A stretch of 64,000 nt of DNA from an uncultured Pseudomonadales bacterium. Lineage in GTDB: Bacteria > Patescibacteriota > Microgenomatia > UBA1400 > UBA1449. The notes beneath the pieces were generated by a model that was not told where the DNA came from, did no database searches, and saw only the letters and a list, made by a program, of their open reading frames with translations. Shown piece by piece: positions 1,289 to 50,229 of this stretch (positions are counted from its first letter, which is position 1; every line of letters starts with the position of its first letter). The stretch is taken from assembly GCA_964386355.1 (NCBI GenBank), contig CAYLQQ010000003.1, positions 69,880-133,879 on the forward strand, in the 5' to 3' direction. The translations under genes and the position numbers were made by a program.

Positions 1289-1291
1289 CCT

Positions 1292-3145: not shown

Positions 3146-3157
3146 ACATTTTTGGGG

Positions 3158-4267: not shown

Positions 4268-4492
4268 ACGTTTTCAGTTGTATCAGATATTACTATTTTT
4301 TCAATACGCTGTAGTAGTAGGTATGGTGGATATGTGGAAAGGTTGGCACATATATGATTAGTGTGGGTGTGGATTGGGTGTGGTGTTTGTTGTTGGTAAT
4401 TTGGTCGCGCTGTGTATTGTTGAGATTGTCGGGGCGAATCATGTGTTTAGTGTGCGGACAGTTTCGTTTGTTATCAACAGCTTATCCACAAA
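4268..4492. promoter_or_regulatory. Candidate oriC segment / DnaA-box cluster between dnaA and dnaN
   Basis: TTATCCACA at 4482-4490 and TTATCAACA at 4471-4479. Several inverted near-boxes (GTGGATAT, TGTGGAAA, TGTGGATTG) at 4325-4372. AT-rich stretch at 4268-4330. Confidence 0.5.
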
Positions 4493-5875
4493 CTATCCAT
4501 ACATTTCTTTGCGAAGTGTGGATATCTCCATCTGGAGCTTAGGGGAGACACTAATAATTTTTGCAACCTTTTCCACAGCATGCATAACTGTTGTATGGTC
4601 TCTGCCCCCAAACATACGGCCGATTTCCATAAACGACACACCAAGGTCGTTTTTGAGGAGATACATTGCGTATTGGCGGGGAGTGACAATAGGCTTGGAT
4701 CTTCTGGGGCCAATAAGAGCCTGGGTTGGTATATCATAGTATTTTGACACTACCCTTACAACCTCCTTGGGGTTTATGTACGTTTTTGGTTTTGAAAGAC
4801 CATCTGTCGCTTCCTTTTTTAACATTTTTAATATCATTGGTCTTGATATGGGTTCTTTTGTAAATGTGCTTGTGGCAGAAAGTTTTGTTAAAAACCCCTG
4901 AAGCATCCGAGTTGAGGTTATTTCTGAGGCTATTTCCTGTGCCAGGTCCATGGGTAGGTTTATATCCATTTGTTTTGATTTGATAAGTAAAATAGCCGTT
5001 CTTAGTTCAAAATTTGGTTGTTGAATATCAATAATAAGTCCTTCCTCAAACCGCGAACGCAACCTGTCTTCTAAAAGTTGTATTTCCGAGGGTGGTCGGT
5101 CAGAGGTGAGAATGATTTGTCCCCCACTGGATTGTATGGCATTAAACGTATGAAAAAACTCTTCCTGAACTGTATTTTTCCCGGCGATAAACTGAATATC
5201 ATCAATAAGCAATCCGTCTACATGGCGATATTTGTTTCTAAACTGGGGAGTTCGCTTGTTTCGAATTGCCTCAATGATTTCGTTTGTAAAATGTTCTCCG
5301 GGACAGTAAATGAGCTTAAATTCTGGGTTGCGCTCTAGAATCCGTATCCCTATTGCCTGCATAAGGTGGGTTTTGCCAACACCCACATCGCCATATAAAA
5401 ATAATGGGTTATATGACGTCCCTGGATTTTTGGCTACAGCTGTAGCGGCTGCATACGCAACTTCATTGGTTGGAGAAACGGCAAAATTCTCAAAGGTGTG
5501 AGTGGTACGCAAGCCCGATCTTCGGATTGAGTTTTCTACGAGAGATTCTTGTTTTTGTTGATTAACAAATTCTTGCGTTTCTTGGCTAAAAAGATCTGGA
5601 ATTGTAGTTTTTGCTTGCTGGCTTGCGATCTGAAACGACACACTTACGGATTCTCGTAGAAGATTGCTAATGGTGGTGGTGACAAGCTCTAGGTGGTTTT
5701 TTGTCAAATAATCCTGAACAAAAATATTTGGACAGGATATAATGATTGTTGTATCGGCGTCTGTTTTTTTTATTTCCTGGATGTGGGTTTTTGCAAAATA
5801 CAAATTGAAATGGGAAAACGATATGTTTGGCTTTAGCTGTTCGAGTGTATTTGTCCAGAGGTTTTCTGTATTCAT
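4493..5875 (-). CDS. dnaA: Chromosomal replication initiator DnaA
   Basis: Walker A GDVGVGKTHL. C-terminal DnaA DNA-binding helix-turn-helix ...TPRQYAMYLLKNDLGVSFMEIGRMFGGRDHTTVMHA. Confidence 0.9.
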   Translation of the reverse strand: MNTENLWTNTLEQLKPNISFSHFNLYFAKTHIQEIKKTDADTTIIISCPNIFVQDYLTKNHLELVTTTISNLLRESVSVSFQIASQQAKTTIPDLFSQETQEFVNQQKQESLVENSIRRSGLRTTHTFENFAVSPTNEVAYAAATAVAKNPGTSYNPLFLYGDVGVGKTHLMQAIGIRILERNPEFKLIYCPGEHFTNEIIEAIRNKRTPQFRNKYRHVDGLLIDDIQFIAGKNTVQEEFFHTFNAIQSSGGQIILTSDRPPSEIQLLEDRLRSRFEEGLIIDIQQPNFELRTAILLIKSKQMDINLPMDLAQEIASEITSTRMLQGFLTKLSATSTFTKEPISRPMILKMLKKEATDGLSKPKTYINPKEVVRVVSKYYDIPTQALIGPRRSKPIVTPRQYAMYLLKNDLGVSFMEIGRMFGGRDHTTVMHAVEKVAKIISVSPKLQMEISTLRKEMYG

Positions 5876-23192: not shown

Positions 23193-23417
23193 TTAATTCC
23201 TAAACACAAAACCAGAATTTGTCTTTAGATATTTTTCAAAATCAAACGCTTTCTTCTTGGTTTCAAACGCAGCATAGAAAACCAATTCGACAGGTCTTAG
23301 GTTTTTTGTATGACTTACAAATTCTTGGCAATGTTCTTTAATTCTATTTTCCAAATTTGTAGAGAAACCGTGATAATAAGATCCGTTTGCTAATTGAAGA
23401 ATATATGCATAATACAT
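23193..23417 (-). CDS. GIY-YIG domain protein (UPF0213/YhbQ-like); likely start at the internal Met
   Basis: YYAYILQLANGSYYHGFSTNLENRIKEH matches the GIY-YIG core. The listed ORF extends to 23495, but its upstream part overlaps the region downstream of the tmRNA. Confidence 0.55.
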   Translation of the reverse strand: MYYAYILQLANGSYYHGFSTNLENRIKEHCQEFVSHTKNLRPVELVFYAAFETKKKAFDFEKYLKTNSGFVFRN

Positions 23418-23576
23418 GCTTTTACTAAGTTTGAAGTACACAAAATGTACTAAAAGGCAGTCCCACTTCACTTTAAAAAGCTTCGCGGAACACACTCCGC
23501 ATCAATGATCACACTAATACGAAAAATAAGAGTGGCCTGCCACGCGAAGCACTTTCTGTTAAGAAAGTGCGGAGTG

Positions 23577-24002
23577 TGGAGATGGGGGGAATCGCACCCC
23601 CGTCTAGCTTTGACTTCTCAATCGTCTACACACGTAGTTTGCTAGTGTACTGAAAAGATGATTAGCAAACGACTCATGTCTTTTCAGTTTAGCCTAAATT
23701 TGATTCCGCTTGGCAATTACGGAACTACACCTATCGTTTGGTTTCACCCACAATCGACTCCGATAAGAAAAGTTATTGTGAATGTCCTTAGAAGCAATTA
23801 AGCGTATAAAGCATTAACTACTGGTCTTTGGAAACTGGCAACTGTTTCGCGGATACTTTCTTTGGCATCAGCTACTACTCGTTGAACTCCAGTTTTGATG
23901 ACGCGTACGTCAGCATTTGTGTTTTGAAATTGTTTTACGACTACATTTCAAAGTCGGTGTGCAGATTTTCAAAGAACAAAACTGTCGAATCTAGGCATCC
24001 CC
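23577..24002 (-). ncRNA. ssrA: tmRNA (transfer-messenger RNA)
   Basis: The reverse-complement 5' end GGGGATGCCTAGATTCGACAG parallels the canonical GGGGCUGAUUCUGGAUUCGACGGG. The 3' end ...GACGGGGGTGCGATTCCCCCCATCTCCA forms a T-arm plus acceptor that pairs with the 5' GGGGATG, including a G3:U70 wobble. The gene lies about 1 kb from smpB and CCA is not encoded. Confidence 0.7.
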
Positions 24003-25009: not shown

Positions 25010-25020
25010 AAAATAATCTG

Positions 25021-25103
25021 CGGAAGGGGCGAGATTCGAACTCGCGAAGCTTTCGCTTGCCGGTTTTCAAGACCGGTGCACTCGACCACTATGCGACCCT
25101 TCC
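25021..25103 (-). tRNA. tRNA-Ser (anticodon UGA), class II with a long variable arm
   Basis: Reverse complement GGAAGGGTCGCATAGTGGTCGAGTGCACCGGTCTTGAAAACCGG...GCGAGTTCGAATCTCGCCCCTTCCG folds as a cloverleaf. Anticodon loop CTTGAAA. Confidence 0.85.
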
Positions 25104-25400
25104 ATCAAAATTTCTTGCTTACTGCATTATTTAAACTTACTGATTTGACCACTACCCTGTTGTATTAACAACAGGGCGGCCTGTTCCTATCGGAACATGC
25201 ACGGTGCGACCCTTCCAGATATCCAATTTTCCGAACTTTTCTATCAAACAATCGGATTTGACCACTATACTAAAACTTTCAGTTTCAGCAAGATCTCTCT
25301 GTGCTTTGCACAAAATAGATGCGGTACGATTCTTCCCTGATGTGCTATTTTAACCCGAAACGGACAACTTTTCATCTTGGGTTATCGGCTCAATTTGTGC
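25104..25400. repeat. Three degenerate direct-repeat units, each containing a copy of the tRNA-Ser 5' end (tgcgacccttcc) and ending in gatttgaccac
   Basis: Unit ...ggtgcgacccttccagatatccaattttccgaacttttctatcaaacaatcggatttgaccac at 25203-25265 is about 95% identical to 28938-29003. A weaker copy gcggtacgattcttccctgat is at about 25320. Confidence 0.5.
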
Positions 25401-25414
25401 TATTATAAACTACT

Positions 25415-26041
25415 ATGGATCAAGTACATACTTCTCAAACTGACCCACATACAAACCAAAATTTTGATCCCAACGTAGCTACCTACCAAGAACCAATGCC
25501 TGTGTCTGTAGTTCGTGAACCGATGAAAGTACTTTTGGCATGGAGATCAGCGTCAAGGCCTTTTGAGCGAAAAGACAGGGAATTTTATACGACAGCTGGT
25601 TCAATCATTTTTCTCGTGTGTGTAATTCTGCTATTTATTAAAGAATTTCTTTTTATTATGGCCATCATTGCCATGGCCTTTTTTTATTACATTATTACTT
25701 CGGTTGAGCCTGAAAAAGTTGAACACAGGATCACAAATAAAGGGGTATTTTCTATTGATAAACTGTATGAATGGGCTCAATTAGGACGGTTTTGGTTTGA
25801 AACTAAACTTGGACAGGAAGTAGTAATGATAGAAAATTTTGTTAGCTTGCCACCTCGTCTCATGATTGTGTTAGGAGAACAAAAGAAAGAAGCAATCCAA
25901 TCAATATTAGAAAAATACTTGATCATGGAAAAACCTGAGCTTGGTCAAGTAGAAAAAATGGGTGCCTGGTTACAAAAGAAGGTTAATGTTGAAAGTTCAA
26001 CGCAAACAAAGTCCCCAAATCCACCCCAAACTAAACCCTGA
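25415..26041 (+). CDS. Hypothetical membrane protein
   Basis: ORF of 208 aa with central TM helices. Confidence 0.4.
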   Translation: MDQVHTSQTDPHTNQNFDPNVATYQEPMPVSVVREPMKVLLAWRSASRPFERKDREFYTTAGSIIFLVCVILLFIKEFLFIMAIIAMAFFYYIITSVEPEKVEHRITNKGVFSIDKLYEWAQLGRFWFETKLGQEVVMIENFVSLPPRLMIVLGEQKKEAIQSILEKYLIMEKPELGQVEKMGAWLQKKVNVESSTQTKSPNPPQTKP

Positions 26042-26158: not shown

Positions 26159-26164
26159 CTAAAT

Positions 26165-26193
26165 GAGACCGTTAGATTTTGGTCTCTTTTTTT
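26165..26193 (+). terminator. Rho-independent terminator after tRNA-Arg
   Basis: gagacc-gttagattttg-ggtctc followed by TTTTTTT. Confidence 0.5.
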
Positions 26194-26407
26194 ACGAGTT
26201 ATAACTGTATTATCATACCTAATTGCTGTTTCCACTAGGTGAAATGCAATTTTCCTTATCTCATAGTAGGCTTATAAGTAATTCGATTTGTCGTTCTTAG
26301 TTTTATTCTAATCCGTTTCTTTGTGAAACACCCCACTTCTTCAATTGAACTCGTATCTTTATAGTTTCCAATTACGGACTAAAAAACGAGACCGTTTTCT
26401 AACGGTT

Positions 26408-26482
26408 GCGCACTAAATACGTCATATGGATAGAACAGGGGTTTGCGGTCCCGCATATGCGGGACGATTCCAGCTGGGAGCA
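26408..26482 (+). pseudogene. tRNA-like remnant, chimeric: the D/anticodon region is identical to tRNA-Arg(GCG) and the 3' T/acceptor end resembles tRNA-Arg(CCG). It has no pairing 5' acceptor strand
   Basis: atggatagaacaggggtttgcgg is shared with 26099-26122. ...acgattccagctgggagca is shared with the 29618-29640 T-arm/acceptor. The 5' strand gcgcact cannot pair with TGGGAGC. Confidence 0.45.
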
Positions 26483-26500
26483 CGTATTATTGCTAAGCTA

Positions 26501-27280
26501 CTATTTTAGAAAAGATGCAGCCTCCTGATCTATAAATATCTTTACCTTTTCTCCCACATTTCTCAGAGCTGATGCTGGACAATCTTCAGATATAGGATCT
26601 AGTAAGCTTTCTCTAAGCAGCTCGGCATATTTTGTACCATAACAAACCAGTAGTATTTCTTTTGAATCAAGGATGGTCCCAATACCTTGGGTTAGGGCAG
26701 ACTCGGGTGAAGACTGTCCCCGTTCTTTCTGGTCACGCTCAACCGTTTCTTTACATAGTTGTGCGAGGTGAGTTCGCGAGGAAAAAGAAGTACCCCGCTC
26801 GTTAAATCCTATATGACACCCCGGTCCTATTCCGAGTATGGAAAGTTCGATTGGGTGTCGTGCAATCAACTCCTCATAGTGTAATGCCTCTTGTTTCGGA
26901 TCTTGTGCTTCTCCGTTTAGTGAGAAAATGCGTTCAGGAGCAATATGGAAAGGTCGATAAACGAGATCAGTCAGATATTTGACAAAACTGTAGGGCTCAG
27001 TCGGGTTGCATGGGAAATACTCATCAAGGTGAAATGCATATGTGTTACTAAAATCAGTTGTGCCGGATTCGATAAACTTAGATATTTCCTGGTAAACAGC
27101 TATTTTCGAATTGCCTGTAGCGTAACTGACAACCAGATCGGGTTTACTGCCAACCCTATCTGCAATGTAGGAAGCACATCCCTGGGATGTGGCCATCTCA
27201 TCAGAGTAGATGCGAATTTCTTTGATTTCGGGGTGAAAAAATGTTGTGTAGTTCATATATCTATGTATAGCACTACACAT
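26501..27280 (-). CDS. nagB: Glucosamine-6-phosphate deaminase/isomerase family (NagB/6-phosphogluconolactonase fold)
   Basis: VVSYATGNS and AFHLDEYFP motifs. Confidence 0.65.
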   Translation of the reverse strand: MCSAIHRYMNYTTFFHPEIKEIRIYSDEMATSQGCASYIADRVGSKPDLVVSYATGNSKIAVYQEISKFIESGTTDFSNTYAFHLDEYFPCNPTEPYSFVKYLTDLVYRPFHIAPERIFSLNGEAQDPKQEALHYEELIARHPIELSILGIGPGCHIGFNERGTSFSSRTHLAQLCKETVERDQKERGQSSPESALTQGIGTILDSKEILLVCYGTKYAELLRESLLDPISEDCPASALRNVGEKVKIFIDQEAASFLK

Positions 27281-27285
27281 ATATT

Positions 27286-28092
27286 TTATGAAGAGGTTAA
27301 TCCTTTAGATTTTAAAATTACCCGCTTCATATACGCATCAATAATTTTACCTAGTAACTTTTTAAATATACTTAAACGCACGGGATAAAAGTAATCTGAC
27401 TCAAACCAACCCATTTCCTTAAAGTGATTATGGTCTTTATTATCTTGCTGACTGTACTTGTGGCCTGAGCGGGTCAAATGGAAAATAAGAACTCTGAAAA
27501 GACTAGGACTGTATTTATTCACCGATGATAAAGCCCCTTCAATTCTCTGAATCTGTTTTTGCAGACCACGTTCAATCATACGCTGTTCGTTTTTGCTCCA
27601 GGCTAGTCCCGGATTGTATGCACCCGAGGTTAGGGTGAAGATACTTCCTTTCACAAAAATACCGCCCCAGAACCCTACTGTATCTTTGAAGTATTTTTCA
27701 ATCGTATCTCCACCATATACTCCCTGGGTAATGATTGAGGAAAAAACTTTCTTGAAAAAACGAGGTCGGTGATAGACAAATGCAAAGCGGTCAAAGAAAT
27801 TTTTCATCAAACCCGATACGTTTAGAGAGTAATTTGGGGTAGTAAATACAATACAGTCTGCTCTGTCCATCTTTTCTAAGATCATAGTCTTATCGTCTTT
27901 GAGCGGACATAGGTCTTCACCTCTAGAAAGGCAAACGGCACAACCTTTGCACATCTGCAGATTGAGGTCCTTTAAGTAAAGTACTTCGGTTTTGTATCTA
28001 TCTTCTAATAGTTCAACAAAACGTTTGACCACCCGTTGAGATTGACCTATGCGCGGGCTTCCGGCAATGATGAGGATCTTTTTCATATTCAA
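27286..28092 (-). CDS. Flavodoxin-like NAD(P)H-dependent FMN reductase / iron-sulfur flavoprotein family
   Basis: KKILIIAGSPRIGQS (flavodoxin-like P-loop) and CKGCAVCLSRGEDLCP (Cys cluster). Confidence 0.5.
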   Translation of the reverse strand: MNMKKILIIAGSPRIGQSQRVVKRFVELLEDRYKTEVLYLKDLNLQMCKGCAVCLSRGEDLCPLKDDKTMILEKMDRADCIVFTTPNYSLNVSGLMKNFFDRFAFVYHRPRFFKKVFSSIITQGVYGGDTIEKYFKDTVGFWGGIFVKGSIFTLTSGAYNPGLAWSKNEQRMIERGLQKQIQRIEGALSSVNKYSPSLFRVLIFHLTRSGHKYSQQDNKDHNHFKEMGWFESDYFYPVRLSIFKKLLGKIIDAYMKRVILKSKGLTSS

Positions 28093-28123
28093 GTTTTTTA
28101 ATGGATATAGAATTGAGAAAATC

Positions 28124-28810
28124 TTATAGATTTATACTTTTGGCTGCAAATTCTTTTTCTATGGAAATTTTCAAATCATTGAGAAGATATGGAAGGTGAG
28201 ACTTACCAATCTCAGTTTTTACTCTTTTCGGAAACATCTCTCTGAATTCTCCATACACTCGTAGCCACTCTGAGGGTTGGTATTTCTCCTTTAAATGGTC
28301 AATCGTCAACTTACTTAAATTGTCTGCATCAACAATAATTGCCTCGTCGTCAGTATTTGAAGCGTGTTCGTCAGCTGCATGGATAAGACGATTGATGGTT
28401 TTTATGTCCTTTGGCAAGTATTTTAATTTTTTTAAAAAGTTGATTGTGAATTTTTTCGAATTATCGTTAGCTTGTCTCTCAAATTGTAGGAGTTCGTCAA
28501 AAGTAATTTTCTTATCGCTAGACAAAACATCTCTCCAGCCAATATCGTGGATATATGCTGCGCTAATGAGAAGGGGCAAATAATCCCTTCCTTTTCCTAG
28601 TTTTTTCACCCACTCTACGACTCGCCTGGCATGGTTCCAATCGCCAGGACGACATCGTGAAATTTCTTTCTCAGCTTTTGATTTAAAAATGTCTTCATTA
28701 AAATTCATATCATTTGGATAATTTTGACTGGCGGAGGGGGCGAGATTTCCATTCGTCTCACTTCGTTCGCTCAGGATAGCCACGTGCTTTGCACTTGGTT
28801 GACTTCTCAT
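28124..28810 (-). CDS. HD-domain phosphohydrolase; start trimmed because the listed ORF overlaps tRNA-Ser(CGA)
   Basis: AAYIHDIGW and ADEH-type HD motifs. Upstream in-frame Met codons are at about 28708 and 28810; the start is uncertain. Confidence 0.45.
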   Translation of the reverse strand: MRSQPSAKHVAILSERSETNGNLAPSASQNYPNDMNFNEDIFKSKAEKEISRCRPGDWNHARRVVEWVKKLGKGRDYLPLLISAAYIHDIGWRDVLSSDKKITFDELLQFERQANDNSKKFTINFLKKLKYLPKDIKTINRLIHAADEHASNTDDEAIIVDADNLSKLTIDHLKEKYQPSEWLRVYGEFREMFPKRVKTEIGKSHLPYLLNDLKISIEKEFAAKSINL

Positions 28811-28864
28811 CTCGCCTTCATTGAAAAGAAAGAATCGGCATTTGAGCCGACTTTTTCTTTTCAG

Positions 28865-28953
28865 CGGAAGGGGCGAGATTCGAACTCGCGATATACCTTG
28901 CGGCATATGCCGATTTTCGAAATCGGTGCACTCGACCTCTATGCGACCCTTCC
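28865..28953 (-). tRNA. tRNA-Ser (anticodon CGA), class II
   Basis: Reverse complement GGAAGGGTCGCATAGAGGTCGAGTGCACCGATTTCGAAAATCGG...GCGAGTTCGAATCTCGCCCCTTCCG. Anticodon loop TTCGAAA. Confidence 0.85.
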
Positions 28954-29018
28954 AGATATTCAATTTTCCGAACTTTTCTATCAAACAATCGGATTTGACC
29001 ACGGTGCGACCCTTCCAG
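28954..29018. repeat. 49-bp spacer plus a 16-nt duplicate of the tRNA-Ser 5' end (ggtgcgacccttccag), immediately upstream of the tRNA-Ser(CGA) 5' end. Same unit as 25203-25265
   Basis: agatattcaattttccgaacttttctatcaaacaatcggatttgaccac ggtgcgacccttccag. Confidence 0.5.
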
Positions 29019-29162
29019 TATTCATGTATGTTTTTTTCTTTATTAACGCCAATTTTTACATGCCCTTGTTTTTGTTCCTCGCACTGCTTTTCAATCTGGT
29101 GTGACCATTCAATAACACTGGTATTATCTCACACAATCTTAAAAAGGGAGAATTTATGCAGA

Positions 29163-29549
29163 CTATGAGTTGTTACTTATAGACTTTTCGCCATACAGGA
29201 GGCGTGTTTTCATATCCATGTACTCTTTTAAGCCAACAATAGCAATGATTAGACTACTGATCGACAAACTTATGCCAATTACAAGCGAAAAAGTATCAGT
29301 AGAAAATAGTTTTATTACACTGACTCCGGAACCCATCAACATAAGAGATGTACGCACATAAGCTAGGAACGTACGCTTATTTGCCATCCGGGTTCTGTCG
29401 ATAGCTAAGTAATCTCTTAAGATTAGATTGTCTTGGGTGTTTTCACTTTCTGAGTTAGACATACTAGGGTGATTGTAAAGGCATAGACACGGCCATTTCA
29501 ATCCTAAATCTCTTGTCTCATGATATATAATATGTGGAACTGTAATCAT
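29163..29549 (-). CDS. DUF202/YidH-family small membrane protein
   Basis: RDYLAIDRTRMANKRTFLAYVRTSLML motif followed by three TM helices. Confidence 0.6.
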   Translation of the reverse strand: MITVPHIIYHETRDLGLKWPCLCLYNHPSMSNSESENTQDNLILRDYLAIDRTRMANKRTFLAYVRTSLMLMGSGVSVIKLFSTDTFSLVIGISLSISSLIIAIVGLKEYMDMKTRLLYGEKSISNNS

Positions 29550-29568
29550 ATATTATTAGATTAGCAAT

Positions 29569-30923: not shown

Positions 30924-31149
30924 AGACTTACCCTTTTTGGTGATAGACGATAAAATACCACCTGAAGCATAAAAGTAAATTGAGCTTTATTTCCCAGACT
31001 ACATGCTTCATAATTCGGTATCTTAATAGGAGGAGTCGCCCCGCGCCAAATCATATTTCAATATGATATGGCCGTCCCGCGAAGTGAAACGAAGCGGGAT
31101 AGTGGTCAAATATGTTTGTTTGATAGTTGAGTAAGTAAAATAAAAACCT

Positions 31150-31237
31150 GGAGGAGTCGCCTAGTGGTTCATGGCGCACGCCTGGAAAGCGTGTATGCTT
31201 CGTGCATTCGCGAGTTCGAATCTCGCCTCCTCCGCCA
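31150..31237 (+). tRNA. tRNA-Ser (anticodon GGA), class II, with CCA encoded
   Basis: GGAGGAG-TC-GCC-TAGTGGTTCAT-GGC-GCACGC-CTGGAAA-GCGTG-(long variable arm)-GCGAG-TTCGAAT-CTCGC-CTCCTCC-G-CCA. Confidence 0.85.
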
Positions 31238-32716
31238 TTCTAAAATATCAGTATTTTTTGGTAAGTCTTTGAGGTAGTCGTAAGGCTTTTTGTATTGTAC
31301 CTTCTGTATTTTCCCATCAGCTATCTCACAGTTCCAAAGTAAGAAATCAAGCAGTTCTTTCTTAACCTGTTTGTTTCCCTTTTTAAACTCAGAATGCAGG
31401 CTAATACAACGTTTTTTAATCTTTTCCAAAAGTTCCAAAGTTTTAGTGGGGTTGGGTGGTGTGTACTTGCTCAGAGCAATCTCGAGGTTGGTTTTCTCCT
31501 CCATTAAGGCTTTCCGTTTCTCCTGGTAGGTCTGTTCATCGAGGCTGTTCTCTAGAAGTAGGTCGAGTAGCCGGTTCAGCTTCTTCTGAATACCGGAGAG
31601 CTCCTGCTGCATCAGCTTGGCTCCATTGAGCTTGTCCTGTTCCCGAACCATTCTATCCTCCATATAGAGCTTGAGTGATAGCGAGGCTAAGTCACCTGGT
31701 AAGGAGGACTGCTTCATCAGACTTTGCAGCAAATCCTGTACCCCCGGCTCATCAAGGTAATCCCGATGCTGGGAACACACCCCTTTTCCGTTAGTGCAGT
31801 AGTAATACACATAGCGCCCTTTTTTAAGGCTAGCGGTTAGCTTGCATCCACACACAGCACATGATAGATACCCACGGTAGAGGAAGTTGTGAGTTTGTTT
31901 CTTGCTTCGGTTAGTCCCATTTAAAACAGTTTGAACTCTATCCCAAAGAGTTTTACTGACTGCTGGTTTGTGTTTACCTTTGTAAAGGATATCGTTTCTT
32001 AGAATTGCTCCATAATAGAATGGGTTTCTCAGACACTTGTGTAAAACCGACTTATGGACTTTTTTATTGCCTAATCTGGTACGTAATCCATCTTTGTACA
32101 GGATAGAAGCAACCTGTTTAAGAGAGTATTCACCTGTTGAGAATAATCTAAACAGCTTTTGAATGTACGTAAATCGCAGAGGATCAGGCACGATCTCTTT
32201 AGTTTCTTTATCGTTTAGGTAACCGATGTATGCCATACCCGGATAGCCGCCTTTTAGAAGTTTGGTTTCATTCCCATGCTTAACCTTGACTGAAAGTTCC
32301 CGGGAATAGTTTGAGGCAAACAGGAAATCAAATCCCATATAGAGTAAATCTTGAACTGATGAATAGATACGGTTAGGAGTTCTGATCTCTTTAAGTTTCC
32401 CTTGTTCGATGAGCTTGGCTATCTTTCCGGCCTCAATCCAGTTTCGACTTAACCTATCCAGGTGAACAGCCAGAATAGCATTGACCTCGCCTGATTCAAT
32501 ACGCTTAAGCATAGATGAGAATTGTGGGCGGTTGTTGTCATCTTTGGCACTGCGAGCTTCCTTAAGGACATCAATCACATTGAGGCCATCTCTGTCAGCT
32601 TGCTCAAGGTTAAGACGTTGCTGGGTTTCCAGTGATTGGATTTGCTTGGTATTTTCATCAGAGGACTTACGACAATAAGCTATATAGCGAAGAGAAGAAT
32701 TATTCATCATGAGCAT
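31169..32716 (-). CDS. Large serine recombinase (resolvase catalytic domain + recombinase domain + zinc ribbon + coiled-coil); its C-terminal codons overlap tRNA-Ser(GGA)
   Basis: RYIAYCRKSSDENTKQIQSLETQ (catalytic Ser), LDRLSRN, and CAVCGCKL...CTNGKGVC zinc ribbon. The start is probably at the MLMM Met cluster (32707-32716); the listed ORF begins at 32776. Confidence 0.75.
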   Translation of the reverse strand: MLMMNNSSLRYIAYCRKSSDENTKQIQSLETQQRLNLEQADRDGLNVIDVLKEARSAKDDNNRPQFSSMLKRIESGEVNAILAVHLDRLSRNWIEAGKIAKLIEQGKLKEIRTPNRIYSSVQDLLYMGFDFLFASNYSRELSVKVKHGNETKLLKGGYPGMAYIGYLNDKETKEIVPDPLRFTYIQKLFRLFSTGEYSLKQVASILYKDGLRTRLGNKKVHKSVLHKCLRNPFYYGAILRNDILYKGKHKPAVSKTLWDRVQTVLNGTNRSKKQTHNFLYRGYLSCAVCGCKLTASLKKGRYVYYYCTNGKGVCSQHRDYLDEPGVQDLLQSLMKQSSLPGDLASLSLKLYMEDRMVREQDKLNGAKLMQQELSGIQKKLNRLLDLLLENSLDEQTYQEKRKALMEEKTNLEIALSKYTPPNPTKTLELLEKIKKRCISLHSEFKKGNKQVKKELLDFLLWNCEIADGKIQKVQYKKPYDYLKDLPKNTDILEWRRRRDSNSRMHEAYTLSRRAP

Positions 32717-33641
32717 CACTCTTTCCGGCAGGCGGATTGTGGTAGCCATTATACTCAAAAAAATATACTTGACCATTCCTCTTACTTACAAACTTGCTAT
32801 TAAACGTAGATTCAATACCATGAGCACCCAACTCATCAAGAATATACTCAGCCTCATCAGAATAATATATTTTAGGTCTATCCAGATTACGGGAAGTAGC
32901 ATAACTACGATGTCCAACAAGTCTTTTGTCTAGAGCATTTTTAATCATGTACTTAGCCAAGTATTGTCCAACATGATCCAAGGTATACACTCGTTCAATT
33001 TTAATAAATCCGAATCCCCAGTATTGCGCAATGGTTTCTTTATCGAGAAAGGGAAAGTCTACCACAAGGTGATAGTGAACTGCTCCTCGTTTTTGAAACT
33101 CAACTACCCAGACATACTTAAACTTCCCATACTGTTTACGCATAGCTTTTAGGAAAGCTCCCATCTTGTCATGACAGACCTCAACATTGGTAATATCAAA
33201 ACTGTTGTGATCATTTAGAGTAAGCGTGAGAAACTTGGTGTGTGGATTGTCTCCAAAATTACCCTGCACAAGGCGTATTAGGTTGTTTGTAGCTCTGACT
33301 GCTGTACGTTTTCGGTACTCTTTACTCCTCTTTGTTTTTCGCTTAAATGGATCTTCAAAGGGTTTTCGCTTCTTAATCTCTTTAATTCGTATCGTTAAGG
33401 GAAACTCATATCGATAGTATTGGATTAAATTATTAATCTTAATTATTTTAATATTTGTCTGTTTGTAGGTGGGAGAGGTATCAAATTTTTCCTGTGCTTT
33501 ATATATGAGTTTTAGTGCTTCATTCCGTTTTGTGACGTTACTATCAAGTAGAGAAGGTGGGAACTGCCTGGGAGCAGTGGTATCCCGACTACCGTCGGGA
33601 TACAAGTGGCGCTCTAATAGTTTTTCTTTAGCCTTATTCAT
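32700..33641 (-). CDS. Rolling-circle replication initiator (HUH endonuclease Rep)
   Basis: Motif I FLTLTL, motif II AVHYHLVV (HUH), and motif III YLAKYMIKN (Y..K). Confidence 0.7.
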   Translation of the reverse strand: MNKAKEKLLERHLYPDGSRDTTAPRQFPPSLLDSNVTKRNEALKLIYKAQEKFDTSPTYKQTNIKIIKINNLIQYYRYEFPLTIRIKEIKKRKPFEDPFKRKTKRSKEYRKRTAVRATNNLIRLVQGNFGDNPHTKFLTLTLNDHNSFDITNVEVCHDKMGAFLKAMRKQYGKFKYVWVVEFQKRGAVHYHLVVDFPFLDKETIAQYWGFGFIKIERVYTLDHVGQYLAKYMIKNALDKRLVGHRSYATSRNLDRPKIYYSDEAEYILDELGAHGIESTFNSKFVSKRNGQVYFFEYNGYHNPPAGKSDAHDE

Positions 33642-33887
33642 ACACCTCCGTTTCCGGTGTATGGTTTAGGTACAAGGCTTTGCCTAAGTGAATGAGGGAT
33701 AACCTAATCTCAAGAAGATCATCGGAAGGTATAGTGATACCGAACGTATTTTGGAAGTATTCCTGTATTTGCTGGTACTGGGTTTCTTCAAGGGACTTGA
33801 CTTGCTTCATATAGCCAGACTAGGCTACGAAGCACAATTACATCAGGGATAAAGCGGGGGATATTTTACGGGGTATATTGTGGGAGA

Positions 33888-34628
33888 TTATGAAATATCA
33901 ATCAATTTATACCCCTCGGAACGGATGGCTACTATACTGTCCATGACCTTAGTTACATCATCTTTTCCAACGCCTGATTCCTTTAACCTTCTGCCAAACC
34001 TCTTTTTAATATCACGAATCAGATCTTGTGCTTGGCTTACATCTAAACCCTTTGTGGATACATTTAAGTTAAGGTAGCTAACAAAATCAATGTAGTTGAT
34101 TACTTTGCCTTTATGTTGAAACAAGTGCATAAAAAATCTAAATTCTCGATTATTAACGTTGATAGTTTTTGATTGGTTGCCTGTATACTGAAATGTAGCT
34201 CTGGTTAAATTGATGGTGATTGGGCCGTGAACATACAATAAATCATCCACACCTCTTATATTAGGTTTTACCAAATGTAATGTGTTATCTTTTTGAGCAG
34301 TTAACTCAGCTAGATCTCTGTCAATTTCCCTAAACGTATGTTCTAGATCATAGGGAAGCGGATAGATATGAGGAATAGTAGAAGCCAAATACTGTAAGTC
34401 CTCTTCAAACGTCTGCTTTGTGGAGTTCCAGTCTTTGATGTGTTCATCAGCTTTGTTAAATAACGAGGGGAAGCTTTTTAATCCCATGATTGGTAATTGA
34501 CGAAACTCAGGACGAATATCAATCACGGTAAATGGCTGTATTATCTGCTGGTATAGATCATCTAATAAATGAGAGGGAAAAATATACTGGTGAGATTGTT
34601 CTGAATATTCACTGTACACACAATCCAA
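33888..34628 (-). CDS. Hypothetical protein with a C-terminal OmpR/PhoB-like winged-helix DNA-binding domain
   Basis: C-terminus ...IRDIKKRFGRR...VMDSIVAIRSEGYKLI resembles trans_reg_C. Confidence 0.35.
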   Translation of the reverse strand: MDCVYSEYSEQSHQYIFPSHLLDDLYQQIIQPFTVIDIRPEFRQLPIMGLKSFPSLFNKADEHIKDWNSTKQTFEEDLQYLASTIPHIYPLPYDLEHTFREIDRDLAELTAQKDNTLHLVKPNIRGVDDLLYVHGPITINLTRATFQYTGNQSKTINVNNREFRFFMHLFQHKGKVINYIDFVSYLNLNVSTKGLDVSQAQDLIRDIKKRFGRRLKESGVGKDDVTKVMDSIVAIRSEGYKLIDIS

Positions 34629-34894
34629 AATCTCGAAAGCCTTTTGATAGAGGACATAATGGTAATACCTGACAGCTTTAAGGTAAAAGGTTTTAGTAGC
34701 TGGGGTTTTGCAATGACGGGGGTATACTCAAGCGGTAATTCATCCCATTCTGAGCTGTTCTTATCAAAGAGACTTAGAAATGTTTCAATAGCTGGAGCAA
34801 AGAAGTTGAGAACCTTATCTTGAAATAATGTTTTAATGTCATCAGTTAGCTTATTCATAAAAAATGTTCGTAATATTGACCAGTAGTATATCAC
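34562..34894 (-). CDS. Hypothetical protein
   Basis: ORF of 110 aa within the element. Confidence 0.25.
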   Translation of the reverse strand: MIYYWSILRTFFMNKLTDDIKTLFQDKVLNFFAPAIETFLSLFDKNSSEWDELPLEYTPVIAKPQLLKPFTLKLSGITIMSSIKRLSRFWIVCTVNIQNNLTSIFFPLIY

Positions 34895-34900
34895 CTCATA

Positions 34901-34928
34901 AAAAGCCTCCGGTTTAGGAGGCTTTTAT
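34901..34928. terminator. Bidirectional rho-independent terminator
   Basis: AAAA-GCCTCC-ggttta-GGAGGC-TTTTAT. Confidence 0.5.
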
Positions 34929-34947
34929 ATTAATCTTTTAAAAAATA

Positions 34948-35616
34948 TTATATTTCTGAACCAATATCTTTATACTCATTAACCGGAGTTGGGACCGGAC
35001 TACTATCTGGTTTTTCTGCAGTACTAGCTCTATGTTCATTAAAGGCTTTATCAATAACAACGCAAGCATCTTTATACGGTAAAGAGGCATAAGAATATTC
35101 AGGTTTAAATCCAATACCTTGACCATAATTACCCACTCTTACTTCGTAAGTAATTCCACCGGGCAAAGAAATATCTACCTGAGGTTCTCTTCCTATACTA
35201 TTACTATTTGGACGGTAGTACTCTGCATCAGCCTGTTGTTTTGCTGCCTGAGCCTTTAATTGAAAGTTGTCTTCACCCCCAACTAACGCATATATTTGTT
35301 CTTTTGTCAAAGAATTCACTCCAAAAGTATATTTCATTTTATTAGGATCGCGCGGGATATGAGCTCTATTATCTCTCTTTTCAAAATCCTCCCACTTACT
35401 CTCATCATCAAAAACTGCGCCTACAGCACAAGGTTGCAGACTTAAAGCATAGTCAGCACCACTTCCTGATTGAATGGCATTTTCTAATGCAGAACCAGAC
35501 CAATTTGTTAATAGTTCCTTCCACATTGCAGTCATATTATTAATGAGCCGATCTGCAGTCTCTTTTTTTGTTTCCTCAATAGTCCCTAACTGTTCTGTCG
35601 TTGTAGTTTCAGTCAT
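34948..35616 (-). CDS. Hypothetical protein (element cargo; possible structural protein)
   Basis: ORF of 222 aa; no motif recognised. Confidence 0.35.
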   Translation of the reverse strand: MTETTTTEQLGTIEETKKETADRLINNMTAMWKELLTNWSGSALENAIQSGSGADYALSLQPCAVGAVFDDESKWEDFEKRDNRAHIPRDPNKMKYTFGVNSLTKEQIYALVGGEDNFQLKAQAAKQQADAEYYRPNSNSIGREPQVDISLPGGITYEVRVGNYGQGIGFKPEYSYASLPYKDACVVIDKAFNEHRASTAEKPDSSPVPTPVNEYKDIGSEI

Positions 35617-35881
35617 ATTTCTCCTTAATATTATTAATATTTATTGAGGTAATATTAACATCGCTAGATCTTTTAAATCAAGGTCTAGAAAATAATTTAA
35701 AATTACTTTTTTCCTCTATAAAAGTTCCAACATCGTCCCATCTCCTCCGCCAGGCGAGACAGAATAGTCTTTATGATTACTCTAGTAATCAATTTAAACA
35801 CTCTGTCTTTGTCAGGGGATTTGTTACAATCATTGGGTACAAAGTTAGAATGTATTGAATTAATAGTAAATAACTAGAGTT

Positions 35882-36352
35882 CTAACAATCACCCCTACCT
35901 ATAAGCACTAATGCTTGATCGATTTCCTGTGCTGCAATCCAAGGTTTGAAATTCTTCGGAATATGAAGAAAGGTGTATCGGGATTTAAGTTGTTTTTGGT
36001 TAATAAGCTTCATAATTTCCCAACTGGTTTGATTACAATAAGAATTACCAATTGCTGTGGCATACTTCATACCAAGAGTTGGTTGCAAAAATGGCTGTAT
36101 TTCTGTGGTTATTAAGTGGTCACTTTCTATCAAATTATTCCTAAACTGATTAGTGCATATTGTTTCAATGCGAATTTTTTCCTGATCAACACCAGAATAT
36201 GAACCTAACCCTACAATATATTCCGGCTGGTCATGCAATAGCATATTTAGATAATGATCAAGGTTATTAGGGAAAACCAGATAACAGCAACTCAGTTGCT
36301 TAAGTCTATATAAAATATGGCCAGTACCACCTAAAGCAAATCCATAAATCAT
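35882..36352 (-). CDS. Pyroglutamyl-peptidase I-like (peptidase C15), compact form
   Basis: DQPEYIVGLGSYSG, IGNSYCNQT (Cys nucleophile region) and TFLHIPKN (His) align with the Pcp active-site blocks. Confidence 0.45.
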   Translation of the reverse strand: MIYGFALGGTGHILYRLKQLSCCYLVFPNNLDHYLNMLLHDQPEYIVGLGSYSGVDQEKIRIETICTNQFRNNLIESDHLITTEIQPFLQPTLGMKYATAIGNSYCNQTSWEIMKLINQKQLKSRYTFLHIPKNFKPWIAAQEIDQALVLIGRGDC

Positions 36353-36357
36353 AAAGT

Positions 36358-38586
36358 TTAAAACAAACTGAGTTGGTCTTCATTGATAACTTTCTTTTTG
36401 ATTGGGCTATTGAGCTTTGATAAACCCAAACTGCGATAGGTTCGTAAGCGTTTATAGTACATGATTTTTAACATTGGCACCTGGTCATCAAAATAATCAT
36501 GAACCACTGCTTGAGTTTTTCCTTCATATGGCCGCTGGACCCGGCCAATATTCTGGATCAATTTCCCCTTCCAGGAAAACGGAAAGGCTAAGAATAGGTG
36601 CGAGACTTCGGGCCAATCAAAACCTTCTCCAATTAGTTTACCGGTAGCAATTAGCAGTTGAAAACGGTCCTGATGTAATCTTTTAGCAATCCGTTCCCGT
36701 TGCTTTTTCGTCATAATACCTGTTGCAACCGCGGCATGAACACCTTTGATCTTTTGGCGAGTCATTTCAAGTAAGGTTTTACAGTGTTCCAGACGTTCGG
36801 ATAGTACCAAACACTTAGCTCCAGTAGCCAAAACAGCGGCAATATCAGTGACAATTTGCTCGTTTCGCTCTTTATCGGCAATTACTAACCGGCTTGCCTC
36901 CTGAAAATCCTCACATTTCGTATTCCCTTTGAATTGTGTTTTACGAGTAACCAATTGAGTTTCGATAGTAGGATTGATCTGAGTAGTTTTCTGTCCAGCT
37001 TCAGGTTCGGCAGTAACGATCTGATCTGATAGGTAGTAATACATTAACTTGTCTAGTTTATCTTTTCGATAGGCGGTAGCCGATAAACCCAATACATATT
37101 TAGCTGGAAATTGCTTAACTACCTGACTAAAGGTATTTGCTGGAACATGGTGGCATTCATCAATAATGACTAGTCCAAAGTCATTCTTAATTTCCTCTAT
37201 TCCTCTTCTGAAAAGAGTCATATAGGAAGCAATAGTGATCTTTTTCCCAACTTTCCATTTATTATCACCAATCAAACCAATGTCGTCCTTTGAAAGCTTG
37301 AAGTAATCACTAATTCGTTTATGCCACTGTTGAAGTAAAGTGTTGGTATGAACAATGATTAATGTCCTTTGCCGTAATTTTTTCATTAAAGCCAAAGCGA
37401 CCATAGTTTTGCCAAATCCAGGATTAGCATTTAAGATTACCCGGTTATACCCAATCAATTGTTTCAGGACTTTTTGCTGATCTTTCCTTAAAATAAGTTT
37501 TGAAGGAAAACTCGTGGTTTTTGTGGTGACCCTCTGATCATCAAAGGTAACTTTTAAATGTTCTTGCTGTGCAAAAGCAATTGTTTTCTCTAAAAAGCCT
37601 ATTGGTGCCAAAATCCCTTCAGGTTGAATTTCGAGAGTCTTAATAAATCGGGGAGTTTGCCAGGTTGAATAACCCAGACGTTCTTTTTCATAGAACTCAG
37701 GATTAGGAAAGTTGAGTTCCTGCTTCAGATATCGGTAGAGTTTATCCGGAAACCAAACGTTCGGAATAAATATACCAGAACTTAAGATTAATTTAGTTTC
37801 CTGCCCTTGAGTGGTAATAACTTTCTCACCGGCTTCAATTGATCCAACATCATCAAGGATGTTTTCGGCTTTCTCTGATTGAGTTTGAGAGGTCATTGTA
37901 ATTGGCTGGATTACAGGTATCTTCAAAATACTATCAATCCTACTGATAGCTATCTTTTTAACGCTGCCCAATATTTTCCACTGATCAGGAAATACCTTAC
38001 CCTCTTCATCAATGAAAGCGGTATACCCCTGTTTTAGGAACTGACCACAAAGAGGCAGGCAAATCAAGTTACCATAACCTTTGCCGGTATGCTCATCAGC
38101 GCTGGGAAACATCCGGTCAAAGGTATGCCGGTTAGTAATCCCGGCTTGGGATAAGAAATATTTACCCAATTGTCTGGCTTTATACCCCTCAACCAATTTC
38201 TCAAAGAAGAACCATAAGTGAGAACCGTTGCCGGATTTTGACCGTTCAATTAAATACGGTAAGTCATAGGTTCGAGCAATATCAGTTACTTTCCTAGTAG
38301 CTTCAAGCCAATTTTGACCATCAAAGTCAAAAGCTAAAAAGGCAGTCGTATTATCCGGAAACAATGGGTAAACACCAATAACCTCTTTGCCTGTCAGATG
38401 AGATTCAATAACCTGATCTGTTAATGCTTGAGGTTGGTGGTTTATAGAGTATACCGGTGTATAACCCGACTTTTTGCCAGAGTAATCTACCCAAAACCTG
38501 GCAAAAACATCCGTTCTAGTCCTAAAAAGTGACCGGGCTAGGTTAATTTGCTCTAAAGTAATAGGATTTCCCATAGAATTACCCAA
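36358..38586 (-). CDS. Fusion of a bifunctional primase-polymerase (AEP/Prim-Pol) N-terminal domain and a C-terminal SF2 helicase (DEAD/ResIII + HelicC)
   Basis: AEP motifs hLtGkeviGvY, AFDFDG and SGNGSHLWFFF. Helicase Walker A NPGFGKT and DExH box VIIDECHH. Confidence 0.65.
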   Translation of the reverse strand: MGNSMGNPITLEQINLARSLFRTRTDVFARFWVDYSGKKSGYTPVYSINHQPQALTDQVIESHLTGKEVIGVYPLFPDNTTAFLAFDFDGQNWLEATRKVTDIARTYDLPYLIERSKSGNGSHLWFFFEKLVEGYKARQLGKYFLSQAGITNRHTFDRMFPSADEHTGKGYGNLICLPLCGQFLKQGYTAFIDEEGKVFPDQWKILGSVKKIAISRIDSILKIPVIQPITMTSQTQSEKAENILDDVGSIEAGEKVITTQGQETKLILSSGIFIPNVWFPDKLYRYLKQELNFPNPEFYEKERLGYSTWQTPRFIKTLEIQPEGILAPIGFLEKTIAFAQQEHLKVTFDDQRVTTKTTSFPSKLILRKDQQKVLKQLIGYNRVILNANPGFGKTMVALALMKKLRQRTLIIVHTNTLLQQWHKRISDYFKLSKDDIGLIGDNKWKVGKKITIASYMTLFRRGIEEIKNDFGLVIIDECHHVPANTFSQVVKQFPAKYVLGLSATAYRKDKLDKLMYYYLSDQIVTAEPEAGQKTTQINPTIETQLVTRKTQFKGNTKCEDFQEASRLVIADKERNEQIVTDIAAVLATGAKCLVLSERLEHCKTLLEMTRQKIKGVHAAVATGIMTKKQRERIAKRLHQDRFQLLIATGKLIGEGFDWPEVSHLFLAFPFSWKGKLIQNIGRVQRPYEGKTQAVVHDYFDDQVPMLKIMYYKRLRTYRSLGLSKLNSPIKKKVINEDQLSLF

Positions 38587-50132: not shown

Positions 50133-50229
50133 CATTTCTATGGATTTCTACGATTTTCTTCGGATTTTTTCATCACCATACACTCATACAAGCGTAGCTT
50201 AATCCTCATATTCTCGGTATAGTAATTAT

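Follow-up and report, generated by a model that had tools for sequence, protein, structure and literature searches.

Stacked 5'-end fragments and small, hairpin-rich, non-coding repeat units at the tRNA-Ser genes of a patescibacterial genome

Scars left by mobile elements at tRNA genes are nearly always 3' fragments that flank large islands. Displaced 5' fragments of tRNA genes (tDNA) are rare in comparison, with 159 islands of this type against 3760 of the 3' type in Islander (PMC4383910), and 5' tDNA displacement is also known for the pTN3-type archaeal integrases of the Thermococcales (PMC8371274). In Prochlorococcus, tycheposons carry an integrase and a replication module beside tRNA genes, tRNA-Ser(UGA) included, and their successive integrations leave partial tRNAs (bioRxiv 10.1101/2020.12.28.424599). 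The present work concerns an array of degenerate 5'-end copies located immediately upstream of a tRNA-Ser(UGA) gene, in a 64-kb stretch of contig CAYLQQ010000003.1 from an uncultured patescibacterium (the whole stretch is called the window hereafter). For this array and its counterparts at the other tRNA-Ser genes of the window, the insertions were established, with their order, exact position, mutual homology and patchy distribution, as was the decay of older fragments. We incline, with some reserve, to explain the array as the stacked scars of small, hairpin-rich, non-coding modules that would insert site-specifically between nucleotides (nt) 12 and 13 of tRNA-Ser genes.

The sequence read consisted of the window and of the 10 kb to its left in the source genome, which, from the names borne by homologues, is that of a bacterium near Candidatus Beckwithbacteria. 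Three tRNA-Ser genes, with anticodons UGA, CGA and GGA, enter the counts given for the window; the tRNA-Ser(GCU) of the source genome is located outside the sequence read. All three genes (3/3) are preceded by units built on a common plan. Read in the sense of the tRNA, a unit opens with a repeat of tRNA nt 1-12 and the dinucleotide CC, continues with a two-hairpin block of 50-59 nt and the motif GTGGTCAAAT, and closes with an A/T-rich linker of 38-39 nt, which ends exactly at the next 12-mer or at tRNA position +1. Two units, A2 (proximal) and A3 (distal), stand before tRNA-Ser(UGA), one (B1) before tRNA-Ser(CGA) and one (C1) before tRNA-Ser(GGA). The hairpin block is missing from B1 alone, which, on direct reading, is an A2-type unit from which the block has been deleted between two GTG triplets. 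The insert is 100-109 bp long (51 bp in the deleted form), and the flanking direct repeat of 12-13 nt, constant within the unit family, begins at tRNA +1. A first-pass annotation of this DNA had described the unit as the 12-mer followed by a conserved tail; both are present, but the two-hairpin block of the full units had been missed and the unit at tRNA-Ser(GGA) was not listed.

The 12-mer GGARGRGTCGCM occurs six times in the 64 kb, where 0.74 occurrences are expected; three of these copies are the real 5' ends of the tRNA genes and the other three stand upstream of them, in A2, B1 and C1. The 5'-end copies announced in the first-pass annotation are therefore real, and the tRNA genes lie where it had placed them. 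GTGGTCAAAT is found exactly four times in the window, each time upstream of a tRNA-Ser gene and in the sense of the tRNA. From this motif (GCGGTCAAAC in the proximal unit of the second species described below), the next +1 lies 48-49 nt away in the five units where the motif is intact, and the distal unit of that species has only the degenerate GGTCAACAG in its place. Each upstream 12-mer matches its own downstream tRNA (GGAAGGGTCGCA at UGA and CGA, GGAGGAGTCGCC at GGA), and the isoacceptor 12-mers differ at 3/12 positions. In 6/6 units, at three loci and in two species, the junction separates nt 12 of the tRNA from nt 13, and the first three bases of the insert are CCG; this exactness of the junction argues for site specificity. 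Furthermore, the 61-nt stretch 25205-25265, from GTGGTCAAAT through the A2 12-mer, is 98% identical to 28942-29002, in agreement with the near-identity to the unit at tRNA-Ser(CGA) that had been noticed beforehand.

The order of events at tRNA-Ser(UGA) was deduced by comparison with relatives, defined as contigs carrying an orthologue of the neighbouring 208-amino-acid (aa) gene at about 70% protein identity. In three of them (L001, L127 and L128), this gene is separated from tRNA-Ser(UGA) by 90 nt, versus 311 nt in the window. Positions 25337-25420 of the window align with the intergenic DNA of the same three relatives, including the promoter and the 10-nt gap to the tRNA start (z scores of 15-17), and the promoter scan returned a match at 25375-25347. 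What follows this native promoter in the window is not a tRNA: the locus reads promoter, decayed 12-mer GGAAGAATCGTA, A3, exact 12-mer, A2 and tRNA. The native promoter and nt 1-12 are thereby separated from the rest of tRNA-Ser(UGA) by about 220 bp, and the deletion of A2 and A3 restores the arrangement of the relatives exactly. Since the conserved native promoter adjoins the copy furthest from the gene, GGAAGAATCGTA is identified, from the alignment, as the ancestral 5' end of tRNA-Ser(UGA), displaced twice. Together with the difference between 90 and 311 nt, its position indicates that the 220 bp were added in two steps, each with a fresh nt 1-12. In both species, the distal 12-mers are decayed (9/12 positions match and 3/12 are changed) whereas the proximal ones show no change, which is what a succession of events would predict. 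Where the first-pass annotation counted at least three repeat units, there are thus two inserted units, the third copy being the ancestral end on its own promoter. The positions of all these features are given in Table 1.

Table 1. Positions of the tRNA-Ser genes, of the units and their parts, and of associated features in the window
Feature	Positions	Strand	Remarks
tRNA-Ser(UGA)	25020-25103	-	Intact; ARAGORN, Rfam tRNA 58.8 bits
Unit A2	25104-25216	-	Proximal, type I; ends at tRNA-Ser(UGA) +1
A2, 12-mer	25205-25216	-	Exact, GGAAGGGTCGCA; followed by CC
A2, hairpin block	25153-25202	-	Two hairpins, 50 nt
A2, motif	25143-25152	-	GTGGTCAAAT; followed by 39-nt A/T-rich linker
Unit A3	25217-25336	-	Distal, type II; linker ends at A2 12-mer
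A3, 12-mer	25325-25336	-	Decayed, GGAAGAATCGTA; followed by CC
A3, hairpin block	25266-25322	-	57 nt
A3, motif	25256-25265	-	GTGGTCAAAT; followed by 39-nt linker
Native tRNA-Ser(UGA) promoter region	25337-25375	-	ATGAAA, 17-nt spacer, TAAAAT, 10 nt to decayed 12-mer
3'-side scar of tRNA-Ser(CGA)	28728-28863	-	About 113 nt, then displaced tRNA-Ser 3' end ATCTCGCCCCCTCCGCCA (28728-28746)
tRNA-Ser(CGA)	28864-28953	-	Intact; ARAGORN and Rfam
Unit B1	28954-29016	-	Short, without hairpin block; upstream of tRNA-Ser(CGA)
B1, 12-mer	29005-29016	-	Followed by CC
B1, motif	28993-29002	-	GTGGTCAAAT; followed by 39-nt linker
Unit C1	31029-31149	+	Type I; upstream of tRNA-Ser(GGA)
C1, 12-mer	31029-31040	+	GGAGGAGTCGCC; followed by CC and 59-nt two-hairpin block
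C1, motif	31102-31111	+	GTGGTCAAAT; followed by 38-nt linker with TAAAAT
tRNA-Ser(GGA)	31150-31237	+	Intact; ARAGORN and Rfam
Integrated element at tRNA-Ser(GGA) 3' end	31169-35752	-	Pfam; not part of the 5' units

The distribution of such copies was scored on every tRNA of the fetched loci, by searching for a sense copy of its own first 12 nt (at most one mismatch) within 400 nt upstream. A copy was present for 3/3 tRNA-Ser genes in the window versus 3/58 in the related loci, where they represent two independent events; the only genuine case at a tRNA other than tRNA-Ser was a tRNA-Arg of L127. A profile hidden Markov model (HMM) of the unit matched only the genome of the window, including an independent Logan contig, and one other species (L157, L158 and L003), and gave no match in about 35 other related loci. 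No unit was found at tRNA-Ser(UGA) in five loci (L001, L127, L128, L007 and L165). In the second species, represented by L157 (orthologue of the neighbouring 241-aa gene 75% identical), two units precede tRNA-Ser(GGA), the proximal one with a perfect 12-mer, the distal one longer and with a decayed 12-mer, GAGGAGCCGCT, placed directly on the native TAAAAT promoter. The same two-unit array was recovered in L157 and L158, from two JGI samples. The window and this species thus have, respectively, one and two units at GGA, and two and zero at UGA. The number of units varies among relatives, and their position is shared at a single locus (GGA) with a single relative; the conservation of number and position across relatives that would have spoken for a structural or regulatory leader was not observed.

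The units of the two species were also compared with one another. The left half of A2 resembles the proximal unit of L157 (z 17.8), and the right half of C1 matches the latter at 48/54 positions (89%, z 22.6), to be compared with a mean column identity of about 73% in the alignment over the native promoter and tRNA start. The left part of A3 and the distal unit of L157 have in common CCGCATCTATTTT, a hairpin and AGAGATC. These alignments indicate that the units are one homologous family, with two mosaic subtypes in two species. Present in a second species, this family is older than the genome of the window. Broader scans with the unit motif added nothing to this picture. Strict patterns gave no match in the JGI metagenomes and IMG/VR, but were too strict for the variant of L157; looser scans of IMG/VR gave chance matches only. 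The scan of the genome collection with GTGGTCAAATN{2,10}TTTGATAG was too loose, its approximately 119 matches in unrelated phyla being due to chance, and these loci were used only as random controls.

The hairpin blocks fold better than shuffled controls, with z scores from -3.3 to -6.1 (A2, -3.7; C1, -3.3), and in the consensus fold of the three type I units, 7/31 pairs show compensatory changes on both sides. A 9-6-9 palindrome, YGGTCAAAY-N6-GTTTGAYAG, can be read directly from the sequence, with GTGGTCAAAT as its left arm; it forms the third hairpin of the consensus fold and is perfect over 7 bp in L157. Judged from the compensatory changes, the hairpins are under structural constraint. Rfam gave no match to the units, either at the gathering threshold or at E<=5, and the promoter scan called neither a sigma-70-type -35/-10 pair nor a terminator inside them. 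A -10-like box (TAAAAT, TAATAT or GAAAAT) could nevertheless be read 8-9 nt upstream of most 12-mers. The CCCGC...GCGGG hairpins were discarded as a shared signature: the same ordinary GC hairpins adjoin other tRNAs. Two other ideas about the units were abandoned. As decayed whole tRNA pseudogenes, they give no tRNA covariance-model match, and the D-loop-like GTGGTCAAAT does not follow the local tRNA; as for coding potential, an open reading frame (ORF) that crosses the linker of A3 and of B1 meets a stop in C1 and in L157.

According to the explanation that we favour, each module inserts exactly between nt 12 and 13 of a tRNA-Ser gene. The insertion strands the resident promoter and nt 1-12 upstream as a dead fragment and places a fresh nt 1-12 before nt 13-88, the tRNA gene staying intact; a second insertion into the regenerated gene pushes the earlier unit further upstream. 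The agent could be a recombinase whose identity core is the 12-bp tRNA start, with an element attachment site (attP) composed of linker, 12-mer, CC and hairpins, or alternatively an enzyme that duplicates the 12-bp target. The agreement of the two flanking 12-mers with the local isoacceptor favours duplication of the target, or else sub-families adapted to it. The hairpins and the 9-6-9 palindrome are candidate cis-acting sites of an enzyme that would be provided in trans. Transcription of the tRNA probably still begins at the native promoter and crosses the array, RNase P trimming the product, and the -10-like boxes may add weak starts; the RNase P protein is encoded in the source genome, so that a long tRNA leader should be removable. 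Since the inserts are homologous and hairpin-rich, with compensatory changes in the stems, the repeated entity appears to be a small module rather than random leftovers of large islands. The stacked integration scars suggested in the first-pass annotation are thus retained as far as the successive displaced 5' fragments are concerned; the repeated entity, however, is a small homologous module without integrase.

Several observations weigh against this explanation. Neither a recombinase nor any credible ORF was found within the units, the intervals between fragment and tRNA being only 51-109 bp, and no terminal inverted repeats were found in them (the ends read CCGYG... and ...ATCT). No full-length parent element of the units was found in the IMG/VR scans, and among the data sampled the family occurs in only two species. 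An element of 63-120 bp is also too small for a plausible excised circle, and its size speaks against a free circular form. The two 12-mers that flank an insert agree with the local tRNA although the isoacceptors differ at 3/12 positions, and this fits target duplication better than a fixed attP core. Finally, the structural conservation of the hairpins and the presence of the unit at GGA in two species could equally fit an RNA or regulatory function.

Among the alternatives, the one that survives best, though we judge it unlikely, dispenses with a dedicated mobile element. The upstream region and nt 1-12 would have been duplicated locally, in tandem or by slippage, and then carried to other tRNA-Ser paralogues and species, either through gene conversion or, following DNA uptake, through homology-facilitated recombination. 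Locus B does equal 1.2 copies of a 63-nt repeat, loci A and B are 98% identical from GTGGTCAAAT through the next 12-mer, the units are mosaic, and the competence gene comF lies next door. Moreover, tRNA-Ser(CGA) shares 97% of its first 30 nt and 100% of its last 28 nt with tRNA-Ser(UGA) and looks like a recent derivative of it. The unit sequences, however, showed no detectable homology to native tRNA upstream regions in 404 comparisons, and the linker no significant similarity to the local native promoter; the units being unrelated to local or any sampled native upstream DNA, a simple local duplication is unlikely. In addition, 12 nt is very short for homologous exchange, the tRNA would be converted or damaged if units spread between isoacceptors whose 12-mers differ, and the nt 12/13 junction, exact in six units, argues for site specificity.

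The structural constraint on the hairpins leaves room for a functional leader, an interpretation which we regard as rather less probable still. The units would be structured 5' leaders or tandem promoter/operator modules, whose hairpins and palindrome control tRNA-Ser transcription or processing, and the 12-mer upstream could be a competitor for the 3' acceptor strand. Such a function would account for the maintenance of the hairpins by compensatory changes, for the 89% identity of the right part at the same locus in two species, for the constant spacing of 48-49 nt to +1, for the -10-like box 8-9 nt ahead of most 12-mers and for the presence of a unit at all three tRNA-Ser genes of the window. 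It agrees poorly with the absence of units at the orthologous loci of most relatives, with a copy number varying between 0, 1, 2 and 3, and with the decay of the distal 12-mers, which are therefore not maintained. Nor do the units have an Rfam match, even at E<=5, or a sigma-70-type -35/-10 pair, and the tRNA that follows B1 is intact in spite of the missing hairpin block.

It is improbable that the units are what is left of kilobase-sized islands, tycheposon-like or of large-serine-recombinase type, that integrated by a crossover within the tRNA 5' part and were later deleted almost wholly. Five independent, near-total deletions would have to leave homologous arms of nearly equal length (100-109 bp). 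The recombinase element of the window, moreover, is joined at the 3' end of its tRNA, with a possible 3' fragment of its own, and the unit HMM finds nothing inside it. These points outweigh, in our opinion, the occurrence of a recombinase-Rep element at tRNA-Ser(GGA) in both unit-bearing species and of a remnant by tRNA-Ser(UGA) in L003, the type II hairpin motif that also adjoins a displaced 3' fragment (28728-28863), and the gene still carried by a 5'-displacing insert in L127. Lastly, metagenome assemblies may break or be wrongly joined where tRNA genes carry repeats, and the independent Logan contig L156 does end inside the repeat, but chance similarity or an assembly artefact can practically be dismissed, given the excess of the 12-mer (6 versus 0.74), the agreement of two JGI samples on the two-unit array (L157 and L158), and the reproduction, base for base, of the promoter and unit A3 in L156, which makes an artefact unlikely.

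The element adjoining the 3' end of tRNA-Ser(GGA) contains a large serine recombinase gene (31169-32776), an HUH Rep gene (PF23343) and two unknown ORFs, with an AEP-TOTE primase-helicase further on. The wider region, 31169-38586, comprises the recombinase, the HUH Rep, three unknown ORFs and the primase-helicase. Among the ORFs scanned, this recombinase is the only one in the window. Its last 23 codons are antisense to nt 20-88 of tRNA-Ser(GGA), and the same overlap exists in L157, where the recombinase-Rep pair is found at the same tRNA (46% and 40% identity; tblastn). In L003 a remnant of the recombinase adjoins tRNA-Ser(UGA), and in L163 a relative stands directly beside tRNA-Asn. The tRNA 3' fragment ATCTCCTCCGCCA at 35740-35752, which is short and has a BLAST E value near 1, may mark the far end of the element. 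Of the tycheposon features, those at 31.2-35.8 kb are thus a recombinase and a Rep abutting a tRNA in two species, the bounding partial tRNA being weak (BLAST E about 1). The element is probably a 3'-end integrant of tycheposon type (bioRxiv 10.1101/2020.12.28.424599). The unit HMM gave no match inside it, and the search for a free form in IMG/VR returned only a 22% identical relative. The large serine recombinase was rejected as agent of the 5' units: its element is joined at the tRNA's 3' end, and no link to the units was found.

A different scar is present on the 3' side of tRNA-Ser(CGA), where about 113 nt separate the gene from a displaced tRNA-Ser 3' end. This stretch holds a GTGCAAAGCAC hairpin and a TCCTGAGCGAACGAAGTGAG motif, both also found in type II units, and matches the distal unit of L157 at 26/29 positions (z 9.8). 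Unit-like sequence is therefore also present at 3' scars, and there is a hint, which should not be pressed, that the units derive from the arms of 3'-integrating elements. The displaced end ATCTCGCCCCCTCCGCCA, with its CCA, resembles the tRNA-Ser(CGA) type of L004, and is repeated in inverted orientation, as GGCGAGAT, about 70 nt upstream. On the other side of the same tRNA gene, ATGGTCACACCAGATTGAAAAG at 29087-29108 (minus strand), about 70 nt upstream of B1, resembles GTGGTCAAATCCGATTG...AAAAG; the resemblance is not significant in alignment tests, and the sequence may be a still older unit remnant.

The surroundings of this gene are variable too. In L128, only 457 nt separate the 208-aa gene from the 241-aa gene; relative to that locus, the window has about 3.1 kb of additional DNA (26160-29560), with a glucosamine-6-P isomerase-like gene, an FMN reductase gene, an HD-domain gene and a DUF202 gene, none of which was seen in any related locus. 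Of the block between the two tRNA-Ser genes, suspected beforehand to be variably present, it is the part from 26.2 to 28.9 kb that is absent from relatives. The tRNA-Ser(CGA) gene is inverted relative to L004 and L005.

Comparable events were observed at other tRNA genes of the clade. In L146 (5701-5915, minus strand), a distant relative (38% identity), tRNA-Ser(GCU) is preceded, 130 nt upstream, by an exact 23-nt copy of its 5' end, and the insert of 107 nt forms two strong hairpins (fold z -5.1) but is unrelated in sequence to the units of the window. In L127, an insert with a gene for a small GIY-YIG protein has moved the native promoter of tRNA-Arg(GCG) and about 64 nt of its 5' end, in the form of a degenerate copy, 338 nt upstream, and L128 shows the uninterrupted state. 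L002 provides the opposite, 3' case, in which a different tRNA-Ser(UGA) and a toxin-antitoxin pair were inserted and the old 3' half lies just downstream. It therefore appears, from these three loci, that tRNA genes in these genomes are recurrent targets of recombination on both sides. The length of the 5' duplication varies with the event (12, 23 or 64 nt), and its start is always tRNA +1. Such a boundary would be expected if incoming DNA must restore a functional tRNA, since identity would then be required between +1 and the crossover but not further upstream.

Further observations concern the same genes. In the species of L157 (L002, 9150-9400; L003, 182-355), tRNA-Ser(UGA) is replaced by a very different tRNA-Ser(UGA) with an MNT/HepT pair; the old 3' half, from anticodon loop to CCA, is found 38 nt downstream, near a C-terminal remnant of the recombinase. 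The window also has two tRNA-Arg genes and one transfer-messenger RNA (tmRNA) gene. A pseudo-tRNA-Arg at 26426-26483 has the 3' side of the anticodon stem, the variable region and the 5' side of the T-stem replaced by a GC hairpin, TCCCGCATATGCGGGA; the same substituted pseudo-tRNA-Arg in L127 (1517-1576, alignment z 21.9) is the displaced 5' copy upstream of the GIY-YIG insert. A GIY-YIG gene of 100 aa (23193-23495) lies directly downstream of the tmRNA gene (23574-24002), and homologous small ORFs adjoin tRNA genes in L127, L136, L144, L146 and L151. At 49773-50086 (region of about 49750-50135), a group I intron (Rfam, 96 bits) splits the anticodon loop of a tRNA missed by ARAGORN, with exons TCCCCGATAGCTCAATGGCAGAGCATTCGCCT... 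and ...GGTTCGAGTCCAGGTCGGGGAGCA; an ORF with a helix-turn-helix domain (48908-49618) is located just upstream of it. Finally, genes for TraC-like and TraG/VirB4-like ATPases (377-5875) lie beside dnaN and dnaA, in the replication origin region (Pfam; same genes in L155).

To our knowledge, very few mobile elements have been characterised in Patescibacteria. The units are gene-free 5'-side inserts of about 110 bp, found at one exact position in every tRNA-Ser gene of the window, in a small genome of the candidate phyla radiation (CPR). Island-finding tools that require an integrase would miss such events, and the units explain assembly breaks at these tRNA genes. They offer a defined 12-bp target and candidate cis-sites, the hairpins and the 9-6-9 palindrome, for a site-specific insertion activity in Patescibacteria. 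A bolder proposal, which is tentative and on which we would not insist, is that they represent an undescribed class of miniature mobile modules of about 110 bp. Such a module would recognise the first 12 bp of tRNA-Ser, insert between nt 12 and 13 and regenerate the 5' end, with the hairpins as sole cargo, and would spread between isoacceptors and CPR species by means of an enzyme acting in trans; it would be the tRNA-5'-end counterpart of miniature inverted-repeat transposable elements (MITEs), harmless to the host by design.

With respect to described systems, the array differs from clustered regularly interspaced short palindromic repeats (CRISPR), as had been recognised from the outset: its repeats are derived from tRNA, the would-be spacers are homologous to each other, and no cas genes were found among the ORFs scanned in the window. 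The resemblance is closer with MITEs, with att-flanked cis-mobilizable elements (CIME-type), mobilised in trans, and with hairpin-ended elements derived from repetitive extragenic palindromes (REP) or IS200/IS605, which are likewise small and non-coding, with homologous copies, hairpins as possible enzyme sites and flanking direct repeats. Unlike these, the units have no terminal inverted repeats, their only target is tRNA-Ser nt 12/13, their direct repeat begins at tRNA +1, and no cognate transposase, REP-associated tyrosine transposase (RAYT) or integrase was found for them. As to tycheposons, the recombinase, Rep and primase-helicase element beside tRNA-Ser(GGA) is similar to them; their scars, in contrast, are 3' partial tRNAs between gene-carrying elements, whereas the units are gene-free and on the 5' side.

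The closest parallel is the 5' class of Islander, together with pTN3. In both, as here, a displaced copy of the gene's own 5' part lies, in the same orientation, ahead of an intact tRNA gene; the native promoter remains attached to the dead fragment, and fragments pile up as integration is repeated. A kilobase-sized island with an integrase gene is replaced here by a family of non-coding, hairpin-rich repeats of 51-109 bp, and the crossover lies between nt 12 and 13, in the D-loop, and not in the anticodon or T-loop, with no linked integrase. In pTN3, integration splits the integrase gene and the promoter is borne by the element; the units have nt 1-12 as 5' target, no integrase gene, split or whole, and only a -10-like box. 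Among the features by which Islander recognises its islands, a cognate 5' fragment in the same orientation upstream of an intact tRNA is present at 3/3 tRNA-Ser genes, and presence at orthologous sites is variable. No integrase lies between tRNA and fragment, the sole recombinase of the window being 3' of tRNA-Ser(GGA), and it is on this feature that membership among islands fails. The units are thus miniature, gene-free, 5'-displacing tDNA inserts, a variant of the known class of 5' displacement.

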